6,803 nucleotides of DNA from Candidatus Woesearchaeota archaeon (GCA_964468425.1 CAYXSZ010000083.1:1-6803); one strand, 5' to 3'; shown: positions 328 through 6,803, counted from the first letter of the stretch. Notes: generated by a model from the letters alone, not told the origin. Program-made: numbers and translations.

Positions 328-1968
328 TTATTCAAGGTCGTAGTCGCCTTCCTCGGAGCCTGGTCCTTTACTCTCGCTTTCTTCTTTCTTTACAGCTGCT
401 ATTACGTCATCTATCTTGAGAATCATACACGCAGCTTCTGTAGCTGACTTTACGGCTTGTGTTGTTACATTTGCTGGCTCCAGAACGTTTAGTTCCCACA
501 TATCTGCTACTTTTCCGTTGATCGCGTCGACTCCGTACCATATTTTTCCTTCTTCGTGTGCCGCTCTTAACTCAGCCATTACTTCGATTGTGTCCATACC
601 TGCATTTTCGGCTAGCGCGGAAGGTATTGCCTCAAGTGCGTCAGCGAAAGCTAGCATAGCTAGTTGGATCTTGGATGGGTGTCTTTTAGCTTCCTCTCTC
701 AATCTTCTCGCAAGTTCGATTTCGATAGCTCCTCCTCCTGCAATTACCTTTCCATATTTGATTACGGTAGCTACATCCTTGACTGCGTCTTGGATGGATC
801 TCTCAATTTCATCTGCTACGTGCTCAGAACCCGCTCTGATCAAAATTGTGACTGCTCTTGGATTCTTACATCCGGTTACGAATATCATATTTTCGTCTGC
901 AACCTTCTTTTCTTCTACAGCTTCAGCGTATCCTAAATCTTCTGGGGAGAGGTCGTCTATAGAGGTAACGATTTTAGCTCCCGTTGCTTTTGCGAGCTTT
1001 TCCATATCAGACTTCTTTACCCTTCTTACAGCGAGAATTCCATATTTAGCTAAGTAATGGGCAGCTAAATCGTCAATTCCCTTTTGGACAAACACTACAT
1101 TTGCTCCGACTTCTTTTATTTTATCTACCATTTGTTTAATCATTTCTTGTTCTTTTCTCAAGAAGGCTTCAAGTTGTTCTGGACTTGTAATGTTAATTCT
1201 CGCGTCTGTTTCGGTTTCTTTTACTTCTAGAGCATCGTTGATTAATGCAATCTTCGCTTCCTTGACAATTTTAGGCATTCCTGGGTGAACTCTTTCCTTG
1301 TCTATTACGATTCCGTCAATTAATTCGGTGTCCTCTATTCCTCCCCCTACTCGTTTTTCGATCTTGATAGCATCGAGGTCTACAATTACTCTATCGTCTT
1401 GTTGAGCGGTTACCTTCTTTACGGCATTTACAACGAGATCTGCGATCTTGTCCGCATACATTCCAGCTATCTTTGAAGACAAAGCGGATTTGGCTATTTT
1501 CTTAAGTGCTTCGGCATCGTCAATCGAAACGTCCTTCGCTATTTCGCTTACAGTCTTCTCCACAAACTGCATAGCTCTCTTGTAACCTTCTATAATGACT
1601 GTTGAATGGATGTTGTTGTCTAGCAAATCTTCTGCTTTTCTTAGAAGTTCTCCAGCGAGAACTACCGATCTTTTAGTTCCATCTCCAACTTCAGTATCCT
1701 GCGTCTTCGCGATCTCGATAATTAACTTCGCTGCCGGGTGCTCTACTTGCATTTCGTCTAAAATTGTGTATCCATCGTTTGTAACGATTATGTCTCCAAG
1801 CTCGTCAACTAGCATTTTGTCCATTCCTCTTGGTCCGAGGGAGGTCTTTAGGATTTCGCCAATGATGACCGCTGCCATGATGTTCGATCTCAAGGCGTCC
1901 CTACCTACGGTTCTTGCATATTTTTCGGGAAGTACCAAAATGGGATACAACGTTCTCTGCTCCGCCAT
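328..1968 (-). CDS. ths: Thermosome subunit (group II chaperonin, Cpn60/TCP-1 family)
   Basis: Long ORF with group II chaperonin motifs: [29 protein letters not shown].., [22 protein letters not shown]. The first M in the track (1986) is a TTG codon; ATGs occur at 1977 and 1968. The TATA box at 1990..1997 predicts a transcription start near 1968, so [15 protein letters not shown]... is the preferred N-terminus. The maximal ORF is 328..1986. Confidence 0.95.
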
Positions 1969-1989
1969 AGTATTCATATACAACAAAGG

Positions 1990-2079: not shown

Positions 2080-2574
2080 TTATTTCTTATTATTAATATA
2101 TCTGATTATTTTGTTCGCTATTTCTTCAGGGGTTTCCTTACTGGTATCGAACGTAATGTAAGGTTTGCTCTCTTCTTCGAGCTCGGATTCGATTACTTCC
2201 AGGTTCTGAGCCCAGATATTCTCGAATATTTTATGATAAGGGTATTTTCGCTGAGACAATCGCTTGTAAAGATCGTTTGGGTCTGCTTTAAGCAAAATGA
2301 AGAGATCCACGAGTTCTTTTGGAAGCAAGTGTGCGAAGGTGCCTTCTACGATAACGTTATCTTCAGAATTTTTTATATGTTCTGAAAGCTTTCTAATTAG
2401 AACATTTTCGTCGACCACAAAGGTTTGGTAAGCTTCGTCGTACTCTAAATGAAGGTTTTGAGACTTTGCGAAGTCTAAAATGTTTATTACGCGAGCTTTA
2501 AGTCTCTTAGAAAGTTCTTTAGCGAGAGTAGTTTTTCCAGATCCGGGAACTCCTGTAATCACTATTACAACCAT
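2080..2574 (-). CDS. Fap7/AK6-type P-loop nucleoside kinase/NTPase (putative adenylate kinase involved in small-subunit rRNA maturation)
   Basis: 164 aa. Walker A ITGVPGSGKTTLAKEL is at the extreme N-terminus. EGTFAHLLP, ADPNDLYKRLSQRKY and KIFENIWAQ resemble the archaeal Fap7 pattern (GHLSHLLP; RL..RGY...KI.EN..AE). Size and layout fit AK6/Fap7 better than a classical adenylate kinase. Confidence 0.8.
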   Translation of the reverse strand: MVVIVITGVPGSGKTTLAKELSKRLKARVINILDFAKSQNLHLEYDEAYQTFVVDENVLIRKLSEHIKNSEDNVIVEGTFAHLLPKELVDLFILLKADPNDLYKRLSQRKYPYHKIFENIWAQNLEVIESELEEESKPYITFDTSKETPEEIANKIIRYINNKK

Positions 2575-2623: not shown

Positions 2624-3019
2624 ATGGTGGAAATTCAGGTTAAAAAGATTGGAGAGTTGAAGCCCGGTAACTACATTTGGTACAACAACAAGGTTTACAA
2701 GGTCGTGAGTGTTGAAACTTCCAAGGTTGGAAAACACGGAGCTGCGAAGGCGAGGGTGGAAGCGGTCTCGTTTGACGGAGACAAAATTGTTCTAATTAAA
2801 CCAACTCACGATAACATTGATGTTCCAATGATAAAGAAGATCAAGGGTCAAGTAATATCCGTTCTTTCAGAGGATAGAGTCATGATTATGGATATGGATA
2901 CTTACGAGACCTTCGAGGCGGTGGTCAACGAAGACCTTCGCGGTAAGCTAAGTGAAGGTCAAAGAGTTGTAGTTTGGGATATTGGAGAGCGAGTTGTGAT
3001 GCAGGCGTTCAAGGATTAA
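2624..3019 (+). CDS. eif5a: Translation initiation factor 5A (aIF5A)
   Basis: 131 aa with the (deoxy)hypusination loop TSKVGKHGAAKA; the modified Lys would be K37 (2732..2734). IMDMDTYETFE and the overall length match archaeal aIF5A. Confidence 0.95.
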   Translation: MVEIQVKKIGELKPGNYIWYNNKVYKVVSVETSKVGKHGAAKARVEAVSFDGDKIVLIKPTHDNIDVPMIKKIKGQVISVLSEDRVMIMDMDTYETFEAVVNEDLRGKLSEGQRVVVWDIGERVVMQAFKD

Positions 3020-3624
3020 AAATCTGCTTTTGGCTCAATTTTAACAATTTTTCCATCTTTCAACCCCTCTAGAAAAGCTCTAAAATCTTCTAAAGTGTAT
3101 TTTAAACTCTCCTCGTAAACGTCGTTATACGTGCTCTCTAGAAGCGATATGTACTCTACCTCTTTCATCAACCTGTTGTATAAGTTTGTTCTCGTTTTTT
3201 CATAGAGCAGTCTAAACAACCTTCTTCTACCCTCATAATAATCTCTGAGGTCTTCAGACAATATCCTTTCGAACAATTCGTCTATTGCTTTGCTTACGGA
3301 GCTTTCCTTATCTTTTTCAAAACCGGGAATGGATAATGAAAATATCAAAAAGTTCTCATACACGTACTCTATTCCAAAGTACACATCGTACCCGATTCCG
3401 TACCTTTCGCGAATTGTTTGGAAGACTAAGGAAGAAGCTCCTCCGGAAACGAACTTTTCAAAAGCGCTGGCGAGGAGAAATTTATTCATAGGTACCTTGA
3501 AGTTCAAGGCAAAATAAACTTGGTTGTTCGTGTCCCTATGCTCTATTATATCTTTCCCTTTACCTACAGTTGGTTTCTTTTTTTGAAACTTCTTTTTCTT
3601 CCAAGTTTGAGAAGTATTTCTCAA
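3016..3624 (-). CDS. M16 peptidase, C-terminal half (Peptidase_M16_C-like); continuation of 3560..4231 in the +1 frame
   Basis: QVYFALNF...VSGGASSLVFQTIRERYGIGYDVY matches the M16 pattern (q.h..lg...LGGGmsSrLf..lRek.GLaYsvy) that normally follows the catalytic domain in a single polypeptide of about 400 aa. The 5' 65 nt overlap the upstream ORF. The ATG at 3624 is probably not a real start. Confidence 0.75.
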   Translation of the reverse strand: MRNTSQTWKKKKFQKKKPTVGKGKDIIEHRDTNNQVYFALNFKVPMNKFLLASAFEKFVSGGASSLVFQTIRERYGIGYDVYFGIEYVYENFLIFSLSIPGFEKDKESSVSKAIDELFERILSEDLRDYYEGRRRLFRLLYEKTRTNLYNRLMKEVEYISLLESTYNDVYEESLKYTLEDFRAFLEGLKDGKIVKIEPKADF

Positions 3625-4231
3625 CTAGTTCGATGTGCTTTTCTGAGAAGTCGCCTTCAAGCAAAATAAACATGTTCTTTGGAGTGTAATATTTGGCTTT
3701 GAACTCCTCTAGGTCTTCTTTAGAAGTGCTTTCTACAGTTTCTCTATAACCAGTAATTGGATCTCCGTAGTCGCTCTCTCCAAAAACAGCTTTTGGGATT
3801 AGCTCGCTCATCCTTTTTTCAGGATCATTATTATAGATCTCTAATTCAGATAAAACTACTTTCTTCTCGTTGTTAAATTCAGTTTCTTTATACTTTTCGT
3901 TTTCAAACATGGAATACAAGATGTCTAAAACCTTTGGAAAACCTTCCGGAATGACTTCTACTATGTAACAGGTTAAATAAGTACTTGTAAATGCGTTTAC
4001 AATCCCGCCATTTAGTTCTAAACCCATGTTTATTTGCTCAGCATCGTATTTATGGTTAGACTTAAACATCATGTGTTCTAGAAAATGCGATATTCCTCTC
4101 TTGTCTTTAGGTTCGTAAACACTCCCTATTTTCACTCCAATTGCGATGCCAACGGTGCTCGCGTCTGGAATTCTTAAAGTATACAATGTTAATCCATTGT
4201 CAAGTACTTTCTTTCCAAAACCATCGGACAT
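3560..4231 (-). CDS. M16 (pitrilysin-family) zinc peptidase, N-terminal catalytic half; truncated by a frameshift
   Basis: Inverted zinc motif HFLEH (4073..4087), followed by NAFTS..T.Y and the distal LSELE region, all typical of the Peptidase_M16 domain. The ORF ends 18 nt after an A7 run, and the reading continues in the +1 frame. Confidence 0.85.
   Translation of the reverse strand: MSDGFGKKVLDNGLTLYTLRIPDASTVGIAIGVKIGSVYEPKDKRGISHFLEHMMFKSNHKYDAEQINMGLELNGGIVNAFTSTYLTCYIVEVIPEGFPKVLDILYSMFENEKYKETEFNNEKKVVLSELEIYNNDPEKRMSELIPKAVFGESDYGDPITGYRETVESTSKEDLEEFKAKYYTPKNMFILLEGDFSEKHIELVEKYFSNLEEKEVSKKETNCR
3578..3584 (-). other. A7 homopolymer (T7 on plus strand) marking the frame change inside the M16 peptidase gene
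   Basis: Minus strand reads GTT TCA AAA AAA GAA ACC AAC TGT AGG TAA in frame 0. Removing one A gives GTT TCA AAA AAG AAA CCA ACT GTA GGT AAA, which joins the two halves. Confidence 0.6.
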
Positions 4232-4247
4232 CTCGAGTAATAATCTA

Positions 4248-5141
4248 TTACTCTTTTTTAACTTTCTTGCTGATCTCGTCCGCGATCCTTATGGGCTCGG
4301 GATATCTTCCCTTAATCCAGAACTCATCGCTCAACTCCTTGGCAGTTTCAACCGATACTTTGTGTCCCGGAGAAACATAAATCACATTTCCATATTTCTC
4401 TAAAACATGACCTATTAACTGGTTATTTTCATCGAAAATTCTGTTACCTTGAATTTTTCCATACAAATGCTTCCTTGTAACTCCGATCGTAGGAATGTCT
4501 AAAAGAACTCCGACGTAGCTGGCTAGTCCTAGTTTTACGGGATGCGCAACTCCCTGTCCATTTACAAAGAGGATGTCAGGAGCTTTTATCTTGTTAAACG
4601 TTTTTAGAATGGGTTCTCCTTCTCTAAAAGCTAAAAATGTTGGAATATATGGAAAAGTTACCCGCTCTTCGAAGACATAGTATTCTACTAAATTTAGTTC
4701 GTTATCCAAGAGAACGTAAACTACTTTAGCCTTATTATTTTTGTAACTTAGATCTACACCACCAATCAACTCTAACTTCGAGAAATCGTCTTGTAGTTTT
4801 AACCTTTTTGAAAGTTCTACTTGCATTTTTCTTAATTTCTCAAGGGGTTTTTCGCCAATCCTAAAGTCATTAAATAGATGCTTTTTTAAATTAACTTTTC
4901 CATTTACAATTTCAACACCTTCGCACTTCAGTCTAATTAACTGCTCTAAGTTTTTTATCTCTCCTTTTTCGTTTACAACCCTCCACCAAGGAATATCTGA
5001 ATGTTTTATAGCTTGGGCTACGAATCTGGTAGCATAAGGACTTCCTAGCGCTAAAGCTAAAGTTTTGAATGTGGTTACCTTACCTTTCGGAATTTGGAAT
5101 ATTAGGTCGCGTAAAATCCTGTTTACGTCCGGAAGATCCAT
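4248..5141 (-). CDS. nfi: Fusion protein: N-terminal alkyltransferase-like (ATL / MGMT DNA-binding) domain plus C-terminal endonuclease V
   Basis: Residues ~8-80 (IPKGKVTTFKTLALALGSPYATRFVAQA...IPWWRVVN..G....LKCEGV) match the MGMT/Ogt C-terminal domain pattern (IP.G.v.tY..iA...g.p.a.RaVg.A...iPCHRVv..G.....LL..EG). Residues ~95-297 carry EndoV motifs: GGVDLSY, PYIPTFLAFRE, NGQGVAHP, GLAS, PTIGVTRK, VSPGH. Confidence 0.9.
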   Translation of the reverse strand: MDLPDVNRILRDLIFQIPKGKVTTFKTLALALGSPYATRFVAQAIKHSDIPWWRVVNEKGEIKNLEQLIRLKCEGVEIVNGKVNLKKHLFNDFRIGEKPLEKLRKMQVELSKRLKLQDDFSKLELIGGVDLSYKNNKAKVVYVLLDNELNLVEYYVFEERVTFPYIPTFLAFREGEPILKTFNKIKAPDILFVNGQGVAHPVKLGLASYVGVLLDIPTIGVTRKHLYGKIQGNRIFDENNQLIGHVLEKYGNVIYVSPGHKVSVETAKELSDEFWIKGRYPEPIRIADEISKKVKKE

Positions 5142-5524: not shown

Positions 5525-6803
5525 CTACAATGCGATATACTTTTTAATGGATTTTAAGATTTCCTCTTTCTCGTTTAACCTAAAGATGTGGACATCTATA
5601 GGATATTTCTGAAATTTGTGTAGAATCTCCTCAGCGAGCTGGACTGCGCTCTCATCATCCTTTACAAAAATCAAAAGATCTACATCGCTTGAAGACTCTC
5701 TTTCTCCTCGTGCTAGACCTCCCGCCAAGAAAACTTCTGAGCCAGGATACCTTTCAGAAACAAACTCTTTAATTTTTGGAACCCACGTCTCCCAAGAATT
5801 AATTAGCTTTTCTCTTTTCTCAAGACGAGTGTCGAGATGATATGCGATTTCTCTCTGAGCAAACTTCCTATATACAATCTCAATTATAAAAGCTAGGACA
5901 ATGGCGGATACAAAAACTATAACTCCAACTATATTAGTTTTAATATTTTTAGCTAAAAGAGTTATAAGAGCAACAAAAGAAAGAATTATAGAAGTTATAG
6001 ATAAATATTTGTTGATTTTTGCTTGTTTTCTTAATATGAAACCTGCGAGGTTCACTGAAAAAAAGATTAAGAGAAAACCTGCGCTTCCAATCAGCGAGAT
6101 CTCTTCTAAATTGAGTAAATTTGCTGAAAGAATTGAAATAAGAGAAATTATTATCAATCCCTCATAAGCTTGCTTCCAAACTTTTCTTTCTAAAGCTTCT
6201 GGAAGTTGACCGTATTTCGATATTATATAAGAAATTCCTACAGTTCCGAACAAAGTAGCATTGATTGCAGACGCTGTCGAAGCGAGAGCTGCGATGCTGA
6301 TTAAAACAAAACCTAGTTTCCCTAGTATTGGTTGAGCAACAGCTGCTAGTGCGTAGTCCTTCGCTTTTACAACTTGTTGAACTGGGAGAGCGCTAACCGT
6401 TACGATTGCTATTAAAATATAAAGAATAGTTACAAAAGTTATCGAAGCGTAAAAAGCTTTCGGAATGTCTTTCAAGTTTTTGGCTTCCGTTGACGCGTTT
6501 GCTATTAGCTCAAAGCCTTCATAAGCTAGAAATATGATCATTCCTCCGACCAGGACATTTAGAATATTTTGAGATGGTAAAAAATATGAAATAATGTCAA
6601 AGTTTTTCAAAGAAACTAATCCTGCGAGCGCAACTAAAGATAAAGCAATTAGTTTAAAAATAACTAGGGCATCTTCAGTTTTACCTGTTATGTATGCTCC
6701 GAGAGCGTTAATCAGCGTGAAAAACAGAATAATTCCAGTTATTGCTAAATGCTTGGGAATTCCCAAAAGAATACTTGCATATGCGCCAAACGCATACGAA
6801 TAC
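5525..6803 (-). CDS. APC-superfamily amino-acid/polyamine permease fused to a C-terminal minimal nucleotidyltransferase (pol-beta superfamily) domain; 5' end beyond the right window edge
   Basis: Multiple hydrophobic helices and FLAYEGFELIANASTEAKNLKDIPKA (compare the APC pattern f.G.E.....aeE.knP.k.iP.A). The last ~109 aa (5528..5854) are soluble and carry VFLAGGLARGERESSSDVDLLIFV (hG[GS]x9-13DhDh) plus a downstream IDVHIF. The M at 6766 in the track is a TTG codon. The frame is open to 6803 (YSYAFGAYASILL...), so the gene is truncated by the window. Confidence 0.9.
   Translation of the reverse strand, partial: YSYAFGAYASILLGIPKHLAITGIILFFTLINALGAYITGKTEDALVIFKLIALSLVALAGLVSLKNFDIISYFLPSQNILNVLVGGMIIFLAYEGFELIANASTEAKNLKDIPKAFYASITFVTILYILIAIVTVSALPVQQVVKAKDYALAAVAQPILGKLGFVLISIAALASTASAINATLFGTVGISYIISKYGQLPEALERKVWKQAYEGLIIISLISILSANLLNLEEISLIGSAGFLLIFFSVNLAGFILRKQAKINKYLSITSIILSFVALITLLAKNIKTNIVGVIVFVSAIVLAFIIEIVYRKFAQREIAYHLDTRLEKREKLINSWETWVPKIKEFVSERYPGSEVFLAGGLARGERESSSDVDLLIFVKDDESAVQLAEEILHKFQKYPIDVHIFRLNEKEEILKSIKKYIAL

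Follow-up and report, generated by a model that had tools for sequence, protein, structure and literature searches.

An archaeal ATL-endonuclease V fusion with asparagine in place of a metal-binding aspartate: a candidate remodelled active site

The window analysed here, a 6803-nucleotide (nt) stretch of DNA with 37.7% G+C (CAYXSZ010000083.1, deposited under Candidatus Woesearchaeota archaeon), carries on its minus strand a gene for a protein of 297 amino acids (aa), in which an alkyltransferase-like (ATL) DNA-binding domain is followed by an endonuclease V (EndoV) domain (Table 1). The gene reads as that of a DNA-lesion protein with two domains, belonging to a nanoarchaeote, a tiny symbiotic archaeon that resembles Nanopusillaceae and comes from hydrothermal metagenomes. 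The architecture itself is already known: Tubbs et al. (2009), cited in PMC10779285, noted ATL-EndoV fusions in archaea. The new element is residue 194, where the EndoV half has asparagine at the position of a catalytic metal-binding aspartate, D110 of the Thermotoga maritima enzyme. A full-text literature search, with several key subscription papers outside its reach, found no description of a natural EndoV with Asn at D110.

Both halves score well above their family thresholds. The EndoV half reaches 173.3 bits against a cut-off of 23.4 and spans positions 2-197 of the 198 in the PF04493 profile. The ATL half reaches 47.8 bits against a cut-off of 27 for PF01035; it begins at about residue 10, without AGT's N-terminal domain. 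The NCBIfam equivalog cut-offs for EndoV are missed (162.9 against 300 bits for NF041102, 159 against 230 bits for NF008629), mostly because of divergence, since these models were made with Thermotogales and with the deoxyribonuclease V type derived from PRK11617 in view. An AlphaFold2 model built from 71 homologues shows the two domains as a single compact and confident unit (mean predicted local distance difference test score, pLDDT, 96.4, and about 97 in the linker; predicted template modelling score, pTM, 0.91). By Foldseek, the model has the RNase H-like fold of T. maritima and Escherichia coli EndoV (target template modelling, TM, score 0.83-0.85, root-mean-square deviation ~1.8 A, E ~1e-21) and the ATL fold of 2KIF and 3GVA (target TM 0.71-0.73); the PIWI nucleases are also among its structural relatives. 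Judged by profiles and predicted structure, the protein is a member of both the EndoV and the ATL families at the level of fold and family.

The identity of residue 194 rests on a phmmer alignment against all PDB sequences, in which residues 97-296 match T. maritima EndoV residues 10-222 (E ~1e-37), gap-free around the block of interest. The superposition of the model on the T. maritima structures supports the same alignment. An initial annotation of the window had read residues 194-209 as N-G-Q-G-V-A-H-P-V-K-L-G-L-A-S-Y and had equated N194, V202 and Y209 with T. maritima D110, R118 and H125; translation and alignment agree on all of this. It had also taken the other catalytic positions to be intact, which is correct for D130 and E174 (T. 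maritima D43 and E89) but not for H260 of the SPGH motif, which had been put forward as the catalytic histidine. SPGH aligns with T. maritima S182-H185, and position 260 is Asn in most orthologues. It is D288 that aligns with the catalytic H214 ('RIAD288E' with 'RLAH214I'), and the tetrad is therefore D130-E174-N194-D288, against D43-E89-D110-H214 in T. maritima. A point overlooked earlier is that K139 is Arg here, T222-R223-K224 matching T. maritima A138-K139-S140. The canonical EndoV residue set is thus broken at the D110 position, with D130, E174, D288 and R223 present and three of the four tetrad positions canonical. The wedge motif and the hypoxanthine pocket are retained, L170, G195, G197, G205 and L226 corresponding to L85, G111, G113, G121 and L142. 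In the AlphaFold2 model, N194 lies at the C-terminal end of strand 190-194; the placing of N194 and D288 in the site rests on alignment, secondary-structure position and global superposition scores. The top PDB match is 6OZF, an engineered T. maritima D110N mutant, because the Asn is common to both: at this site the wild type of the window equals a laboratory mutant.

Table 1. Coordinates of features in the window (residue numbers are those of the 297-aa protein; Tma, T. maritima EndoV; ORF, open reading frame)
Feature	Position	Strand	Basis or remark
ATL-EndoV fusion gene, 297 aa	4248..5141	-	ATG at 5141, stop codon 4250..4248; ORF list, translation, PF01035 and PF04493
ATL-like DNA-binding domain, aa 13-68 (Pfam)	4938..5105	-	PF01035 E=1.3e-12; Foldseek 2kif/3gva; fold reaches ~aa 90
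Arg39, equivalent to the 'arginine finger' Arg39 of Atl1	5025..5027	-	phmmer alignment to 3GVA
PWWRV motif, Trp52 for the alkyl-acceptor Cys of PCHRV	4977..4991	-	Translation, PDB alignment
Endonuclease V domain, aa 109-288	4278..4817	-	PF04493 173 bits, E=6e-51; PDB EndoV matches E=1e-37
Asp130 = Tma D43, first catalytic carboxylate	4752..4754	-	Alignment; invariant in 32/32 nanoarchaeal proteins and 88/88 other fusions
P164-Y165-I166-P167 wedge motif = Tma P79-P82	4641..4652	-	Alignment; invariant in 32/32 nanoarchaeal proteins
Glu174 = Tma E89, second catalytic carboxylate	4620..4622	-	Alignment; invariant in 120/120 proteins
Block N194..Y209 NGQGVAHPVKLGLASY, with pocket glycines G195, G197, G205, and H200, V202, Y209	4515..4562	-	Translation, phmmer
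Asn194 (AAT) = Tma D110, metal-ligand position	4560..4562	-	Translation, gap-free alignment
Arg223 = Tma K139, phosphate-contacting basic residue	4473..4475	-	Alignment; 28 Lys and 4 Arg among 32 nanoarchaeal proteins
His260 (SPGH) = Tma H185, not the catalytic His	4362..4364	-	Alignment
Asp288 = Tma H214 = E. coli D210, fourth active-site residue	4278..4280	-	Alignment; Asp in 31/32 nanoarchaeal proteins
TATA-like AT-rich box ATTTTTAA	5163..5170	-	22-29 nt upstream of ATG; read from sequence
M16 peptidase ORFs	3560..4231 (223 aa) and 3016..3624 (202 aa)	-	ORF calls
aIF5A	2624..3019	+	
Small AAA_18/adenylate-kinase-like NTPase	2080..2574	-	
Thermosome subunit	328..1986	-	

With T. maritima EndoV (2W35, 3HD0) the EndoV half shares ~37% identity over the domain, the RNase H-like fold, the PYIP wedge and the pocket glycines, and both proteins have D43, E89 and a basic side chain at K139. 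It differs in having Asn at D110 by nature, Asp at H214, Val at R118, Tyr at H125, Arg at K139 and a fused ATL domain. E. coli EndoV (Nfi, 4XPU), at 35% identity, shares the fold and also has Asp in the fourth position (D210, equivalent to D288); its site is D-E-D-D, the third Asp being judged from alignment to T. maritima D110, whereas that of the window protein is D-E-N-D.

The N-terminal half had been described as an ATL that lacks the acceptor Cys, and this is borne out. The closest PDB relatives of residues 11-90 are the ATLs vpAtl of Vibrio parahaemolyticus (2KIF, PWFRV) and Atl1 of Schizosaccharomyces pombe (3GVA, PWHRV), ahead of any AGT. The ATL signature is present, with W52 in place of the acceptor Cys and R39 kept; F25 replaces Y25 of Atl1. 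The role of Arg39 as a finger is presumably that of its counterparts in Atl1 and AGT. Atl1 and vpAtl likewise have the PW[HFW]RV motif with Trp at the Cys position and Arg39, but they stand alone and pass lesions to nucleotide excision repair, whereas the ATL of the window is covalently joined to a nuclease-fold domain. In the order of its domains, an alkyltransferase-fold C-terminal domain and then EndoV, the protein resembles the other archaeal ATL-EndoV fusions and the AGTendoV of Ferroplasma acidarmanus. The Ferroplasma protein has the acceptor Cys, and PMC10779285 describes both its AGT and its EndoV activity as demonstrated. The window protein, with Trp for that Cys and Asn for the metal-ligand Asp, has the architecture of such bifunctional enzymes but differs from them in both catalytic signatures.

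The Asn is fixed across a clade of nanoarchaea. Among the 120 best matches from a collection of 5.8 billion proteins, the 32 closest (45-100% identity), whose names include Nanopusillaceae, Nanopusillus, Nanobdella aerobiophila and Nanoarchaeota, all have Asn in the D110 column, and none has Cys in the ATL motif. The remaining 88 are AGT/ATL-EndoV fusions, some named Thermoplasmata or Bipolaricaulota, and all have Asp. In a scan of one genome per GTDB species, the fusion was found in 17 nanoarchaeal genomes, every one of them with N194, D288 and K223; those of Nanopusillus acidilobi, Nanobdella aerobiophila and strain YN1 among them are complete. The scan pattern contained 'LFVNGxG' and was thereby biased towards Asn, so that the share of Asn among scanned loci is not a frequency. 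The codon is AAT in 17 of the 17 sequences compared (16 GTDB nanoarchaeal genomes and the window). Four contigs, each from a different metagenome assembly (JGI 3300007771, ENA ERZ23491583, ENA ERZ940667 and JGI 3300028838), code for an identical protein of 297 aa; ENA ERZ940667 is labelled hydrothermal vent. These genes each differ from that of the window at 3-4 nt, all synonymous, and codon 194 is AAT in all.

The gene is also under purifying selection. Between Nanopusillus genes with unsaturated synonymous divergence (dS 0.19-0.44), the pairwise ratio of nonsynonymous to synonymous substitution rates (dN/dS) is 0.06-0.18 overall and 0.05-0.20 in the EndoV half, which is constrained at least as strongly as the ATL half. 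The positions D43, E89, Q20, the PYIP wedge, H116, S182, L85, G111, G113, G121 and L142 (T. maritima numbering) are invariant in all 32 nanoarchaeal proteins. Among the GTDB nanoarchaeal genomes there is a sole exception at E89, the single-cell genome of Candidatus Nanobsidianus stetteri (L010), which has Asp (GAT) there. On the FVNGxG strand, no neighbouring Asp or Glu is conserved. The two further changes that had been noted in the block, at R118 and H125, do not count as separate evidence of decay, since Asp-type fusions vary at both positions. The change at R118 alone tracks Asn across independent clades, that of H125 to Tyr, Trp or Phe being confined to the nanoarchaeal clade. In that clade D110, R118, H125, A138 and H214 have changed in a coordinated manner; Asp in the fourth position is also seen in 15 of the 88 Asp-type fusions.

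Outside the fusions, the genome scan recovered stand-alone EndoVs with Asn at D110 in a metagenome-assembled genome (MAG) of Aenigmatarchaeota (L052), in uncultured archaea (L047 and L084) and in Asgard MAGs (L051, L058 and L067). The best 120 matches to the L052 protein comprise 68 with Asn and 52 with Asp. All 52 Asp proteins keep K139; of those with Asn, 62 have Gln at K139, six Ala, Ser or Gly, and one Lys, and nearly all are hydrophobic at R118. When the sequences are pooled, 142 of 142 with Asp at D110 keep K139, and 108 of 109 with Asn either carry Asp where T. maritima has H214 or lack Lys at K139, these being counts of related sequences and not of independent events. The stand-alone Asn EndoVs of Aenigmatarchaeota and of other DPANN and Asgard MAGs (such as L052/P0121, L047, L058, L067) resemble the window protein in Asn at D110, a hydrophobic residue at R118 and invariant D43, E89 and Y80. 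They differ in their independent origin, the lack of ATL, the replacement of K139 by Gln, Ala, Ser, Thr or Val, and the His mostly kept at 214.

In a neighbour-joining (NJ) tree of the EndoV domain, made with the variable active-site columns masked and without support values, all 123 fusions form one clade, and the nanoarchaeal Asn clade is nested within the Asp-type fusions. It adjoins fusions of Thermoplasmata that lack the Cys and have a canonical D-E-D..R..H..K..H site. The Asn clade of the Aenigmatarchaeota type clusters with Asp-type EndoVs that stand alone. A Fitch count on this tree gives 12 changes between Asp and Asn, a number probably inflated by tree noise. We infer from these patterns that Asp gave way to Asn at least twice independently, on each occasion along with a charge change at another position of the site: in nanoarchaea a carboxylate was gained (H214D), in the Aenigmatarchaeota type a cation was lost (K139Q), and R118 was lost in both.

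Three observations from the same searches may be added. Several Thermoplasmata-type fusions (P0050, P0056, P0073, P0076, P0078, P0080-P0082, P0089 and P0111) have no acceptor Cys (PIHRV, PTHRV, PLHRV or PKHRV) and keep the canonical EndoV residues; since such fusions are the NJ sister group of the nanoarchaeal clade, the loss of Cys probably preceded the change from Asp to Asn. The Asgard proteins (L051, L058 and L067, from Borrarchaeota and Promethearchaeota) have Ser, Val or Thr at K139 followed by Lys, the basic residue being shifted by one position, and may be a third independent Asn lineage. Four stand-alone EndoVs of Hadarchaeota (L068, L072, L077 and L079) have Gly-Ala in place of Asp-Gly ('MIGAQGIAHP') and so lack a side-chain ligand at the D110 position, with R118, K139 and H214 kept; another Hadarchaeota genome (L063) has the normal Asp.

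In the product complex of T. maritima EndoV, Mg2+ is directly bound by D43 and D110 and contacts the 3'-OH, and K139 and H214 hold the 5'-phosphate; Asp in place of H214 is natural and active in E. coli EndoV, as D210 (summarised in PMC4650699). Mi et al. assayed 36 T. maritima mutants in Mn2+ with a ten-fold excess of enzyme, and all of them cut at inosine except D43A, D43C and D43H; H214D was among those that still cleave (PMC3025561). The active-site mutants largely lacked the non-specific nuclease activity of the wild type, the D110 substitutions used being unspecified (PMC3025561). The statement in the initial annotation that changing a metal-ligand Asp abolishes cleavage is thus too strong for D110. 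PDB titles show T. maritima D110N and E89Q, mouse K155M and Ciona D234N to be variants made for crystallising complexes with inosine-containing DNA or RNA, which implies that they were strongly impaired in those conditions.

We propose that the EndoV half has a charge-compensated, remodelled metal site and is a nuclease still active but attenuated, a reading to which, on the sequence evidence, we give an even chance. The ATL half would bind and flip O6-alkylguanine without alkyl transfer. The EndoV half would depend on a divalent metal and would cut the second phosphodiester 3' of hypoxanthine or a related lesion, perhaps also 3' of alkyl lesions bound by the ATL half. The side-chain carbonyl of Asn194 could serve as a neutral ligand of the leaving-group metal, alongside D130 and E174. 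Asp288, on the nucleophile and 5'-phosphate side, would supply a third carboxylate, so that three carboxylates would be kept, as in the T. maritima enzyme. Such a site would be expected to bind metal more weakly, to turn over more slowly, to prefer Mn2+ and to show less non-specific cleavage, and the attenuation might make for a safer nuclease while the ATL domain tethers the protein to DNA.

Several points weigh against this proposal. The equivalent Asp-to-Asn replacements in RNase H enzymes (E. coli D70N, Bacillus halodurans D132N) are inactivating. Active PIWI nucleases are DEDX, with X being D, H, K or N, so that their tolerance of Asn concerns the fourth position and not the third (PMC12865457). 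The partner ATL domain is itself of the non-catalytic binder type, and metal-assisted binding could on its own account for the conservation of D43 and E89 too. Finally, T. maritima D110N was made for crystals with an uncleaved inosine 12-mer (6OZF), which implies strong impairment in the T. maritima background. The main rival is a natural nuclease-dead lesion reader, in which ATL would bind O6-alkylguanine and EndoV would bind hypoxanthine without chemistry, and which would mark or shield the lesion or pass it to another nuclease such as Fen1, XPF or EndoIV. The Asn is at the position of a direct metal ligand, 6OZF offers a crystallographic precedent, and the second Asn clade carries D110N together with K139Q, neutral isosteres such as would be chosen to inactivate the enzyme. 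EndoV stays tightly bound to lesions and products. ATLs, for their part, are established as non-catalytic damage sensors (PMC10779285). We nevertheless regard a dead reader as unlikely, if a serious contender. Pseudo-enzymes usually lose several catalytic residues, whereas the nanoarchaeal clade has gained a carboxylate; D43, E89, K/R139 and the fourth-position Asp are invariant or nearly so, with dN/dS ~0.1, in genomes of 0.6-0.8 Mb, and the Mn2+ data of Mi et al. also speak against it. A remodelled functional site is favoured over a dead one because of the clade-wide purifying selection, the invariant D43 and E89 and the convergent Asn with a second charge change. Of the two suggestions in the initial annotation, that of altered chemistry or metal dependence is the better supported, and that of lesion binding alone the weaker.

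An enzyme that is active with a changed chemistry or substrate, such as a strict Mn2+ or effectively one-metal mechanism, inosine RNA as target, or nicking directed mainly by ATL at alkylated guanines, seems to us improbable. The coordinated changes in the nanoarchaeal clade and the modelling of the two domains as one compact unit speak for it, and EndoV has been speculated to be the incision nuclease for ATL-marked lesions (PMC10779285). However, the hypoxanthine pocket and the wedge are unaltered, which argues for conserved lesion recognition, and fusion alone does not require Asn, because the sister Cys-less Thermoplasmata fusions keep D-E-D..K..H. There is, lastly, a negligible chance that the Asn is an artefact, a thought invited by AAT being one transition from GAT and by the frameshifted neighbour gene in the window. 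Asn194 is not a read or assembly error for GAT, since each of four independent assemblies and all 17 sequences compared have AAT. Decay of a pseudogene is rejected, given a dN/dS far below 1 and within-population differences that are only synonymous, as is a misalignment hiding a true Asp, given the gap-free alignment (E=1e-37), the fold match and the lack of a conserved Asp or Glu nearby.

The surroundings of the gene are of some interest in their own right. The AT-rich box upstream of the ATG (Table 1) is a possible archaeal promoter for a leaderless transcript of the ATL-EndoV gene. No tRNA and no Rfam element was found in the 6803-nt window. Directly downstream lies a gene for an M16 (insulinase-type) peptidase (3016..4231, minus strand), split into two overlapping ORFs in different frames. 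The break falls inside Peptidase_M16_C, the first ORF holding profile positions 3-48 and the second positions 51-168, at the run TTTCAAAAAAAGAAACC, where an A7 tract lies at ~3576..3582; one A fewer would join the frames. Three further independent assemblies (L001-L003) have this A7 sequence as well, and strain YN1 has a single M16 ORF of 432 aa (L011 4521..5819). The break could mark a genuinely split gene, a pseudogene or a site of slippage. ATL-EndoV, aIF5A and M16 remain linked across 16 nanoarchaeal genomes (among loci L005-L021); in most of them aIF5A stands between EndoV and M16, but in the window and in L005 M16 follows EndoV directly, a local rearrangement. On the other side, a 413-aa ORF with a TTG start (5525..6766, minus strand) joins a portion of an amino-acid permease, N-terminally truncated (AA_permease_2 positions 122-407 of 427), to a C-terminal nucleotidyltransferase domain (NTP_transf_2/Polbeta, aa 330-410). 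Upstream of the EndoV gene, the near-identical contig L001 has instead three gene calls, of 376, 147 and 67 aa, and the permease-nucleotidyltransferase fusion may reflect a difference in ORF calling or a frameshift.

More generally, we suggest, with somewhat less than even confidence, that archaeal EndoVs include unrecognised natural classes in which D110 has become Asn, with charge rebalanced elsewhere in the site, and which evolved convergently, either as a distinct catalytic solution or as conserved non-catalytic lesion readers. If so, there would be a neutral-ligand metal site with altered metal dependence or specificity, or readers of hypoxanthine and alkyl lesions in minimal genomes. EndoV is already described as an inosine-detection reagent, for example in a report on the EndoVIA assay (PMC11273454), and a thermostable EndoV that is by nature attenuated or limited to binding could be of use there. 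A residue of a laboratory mutant that has been fixed by selection across an archaeal lineage, and again independently elsewhere, would mean either that the metal site of EndoV has more plasticity than one would expect from the model enzymes or that nuclease-dead readers are conserved. Either outcome bears on how ATL-EndoV fusions handle damage by alkylation and deamination in organisms whose repair repertoires are extremely reduced.

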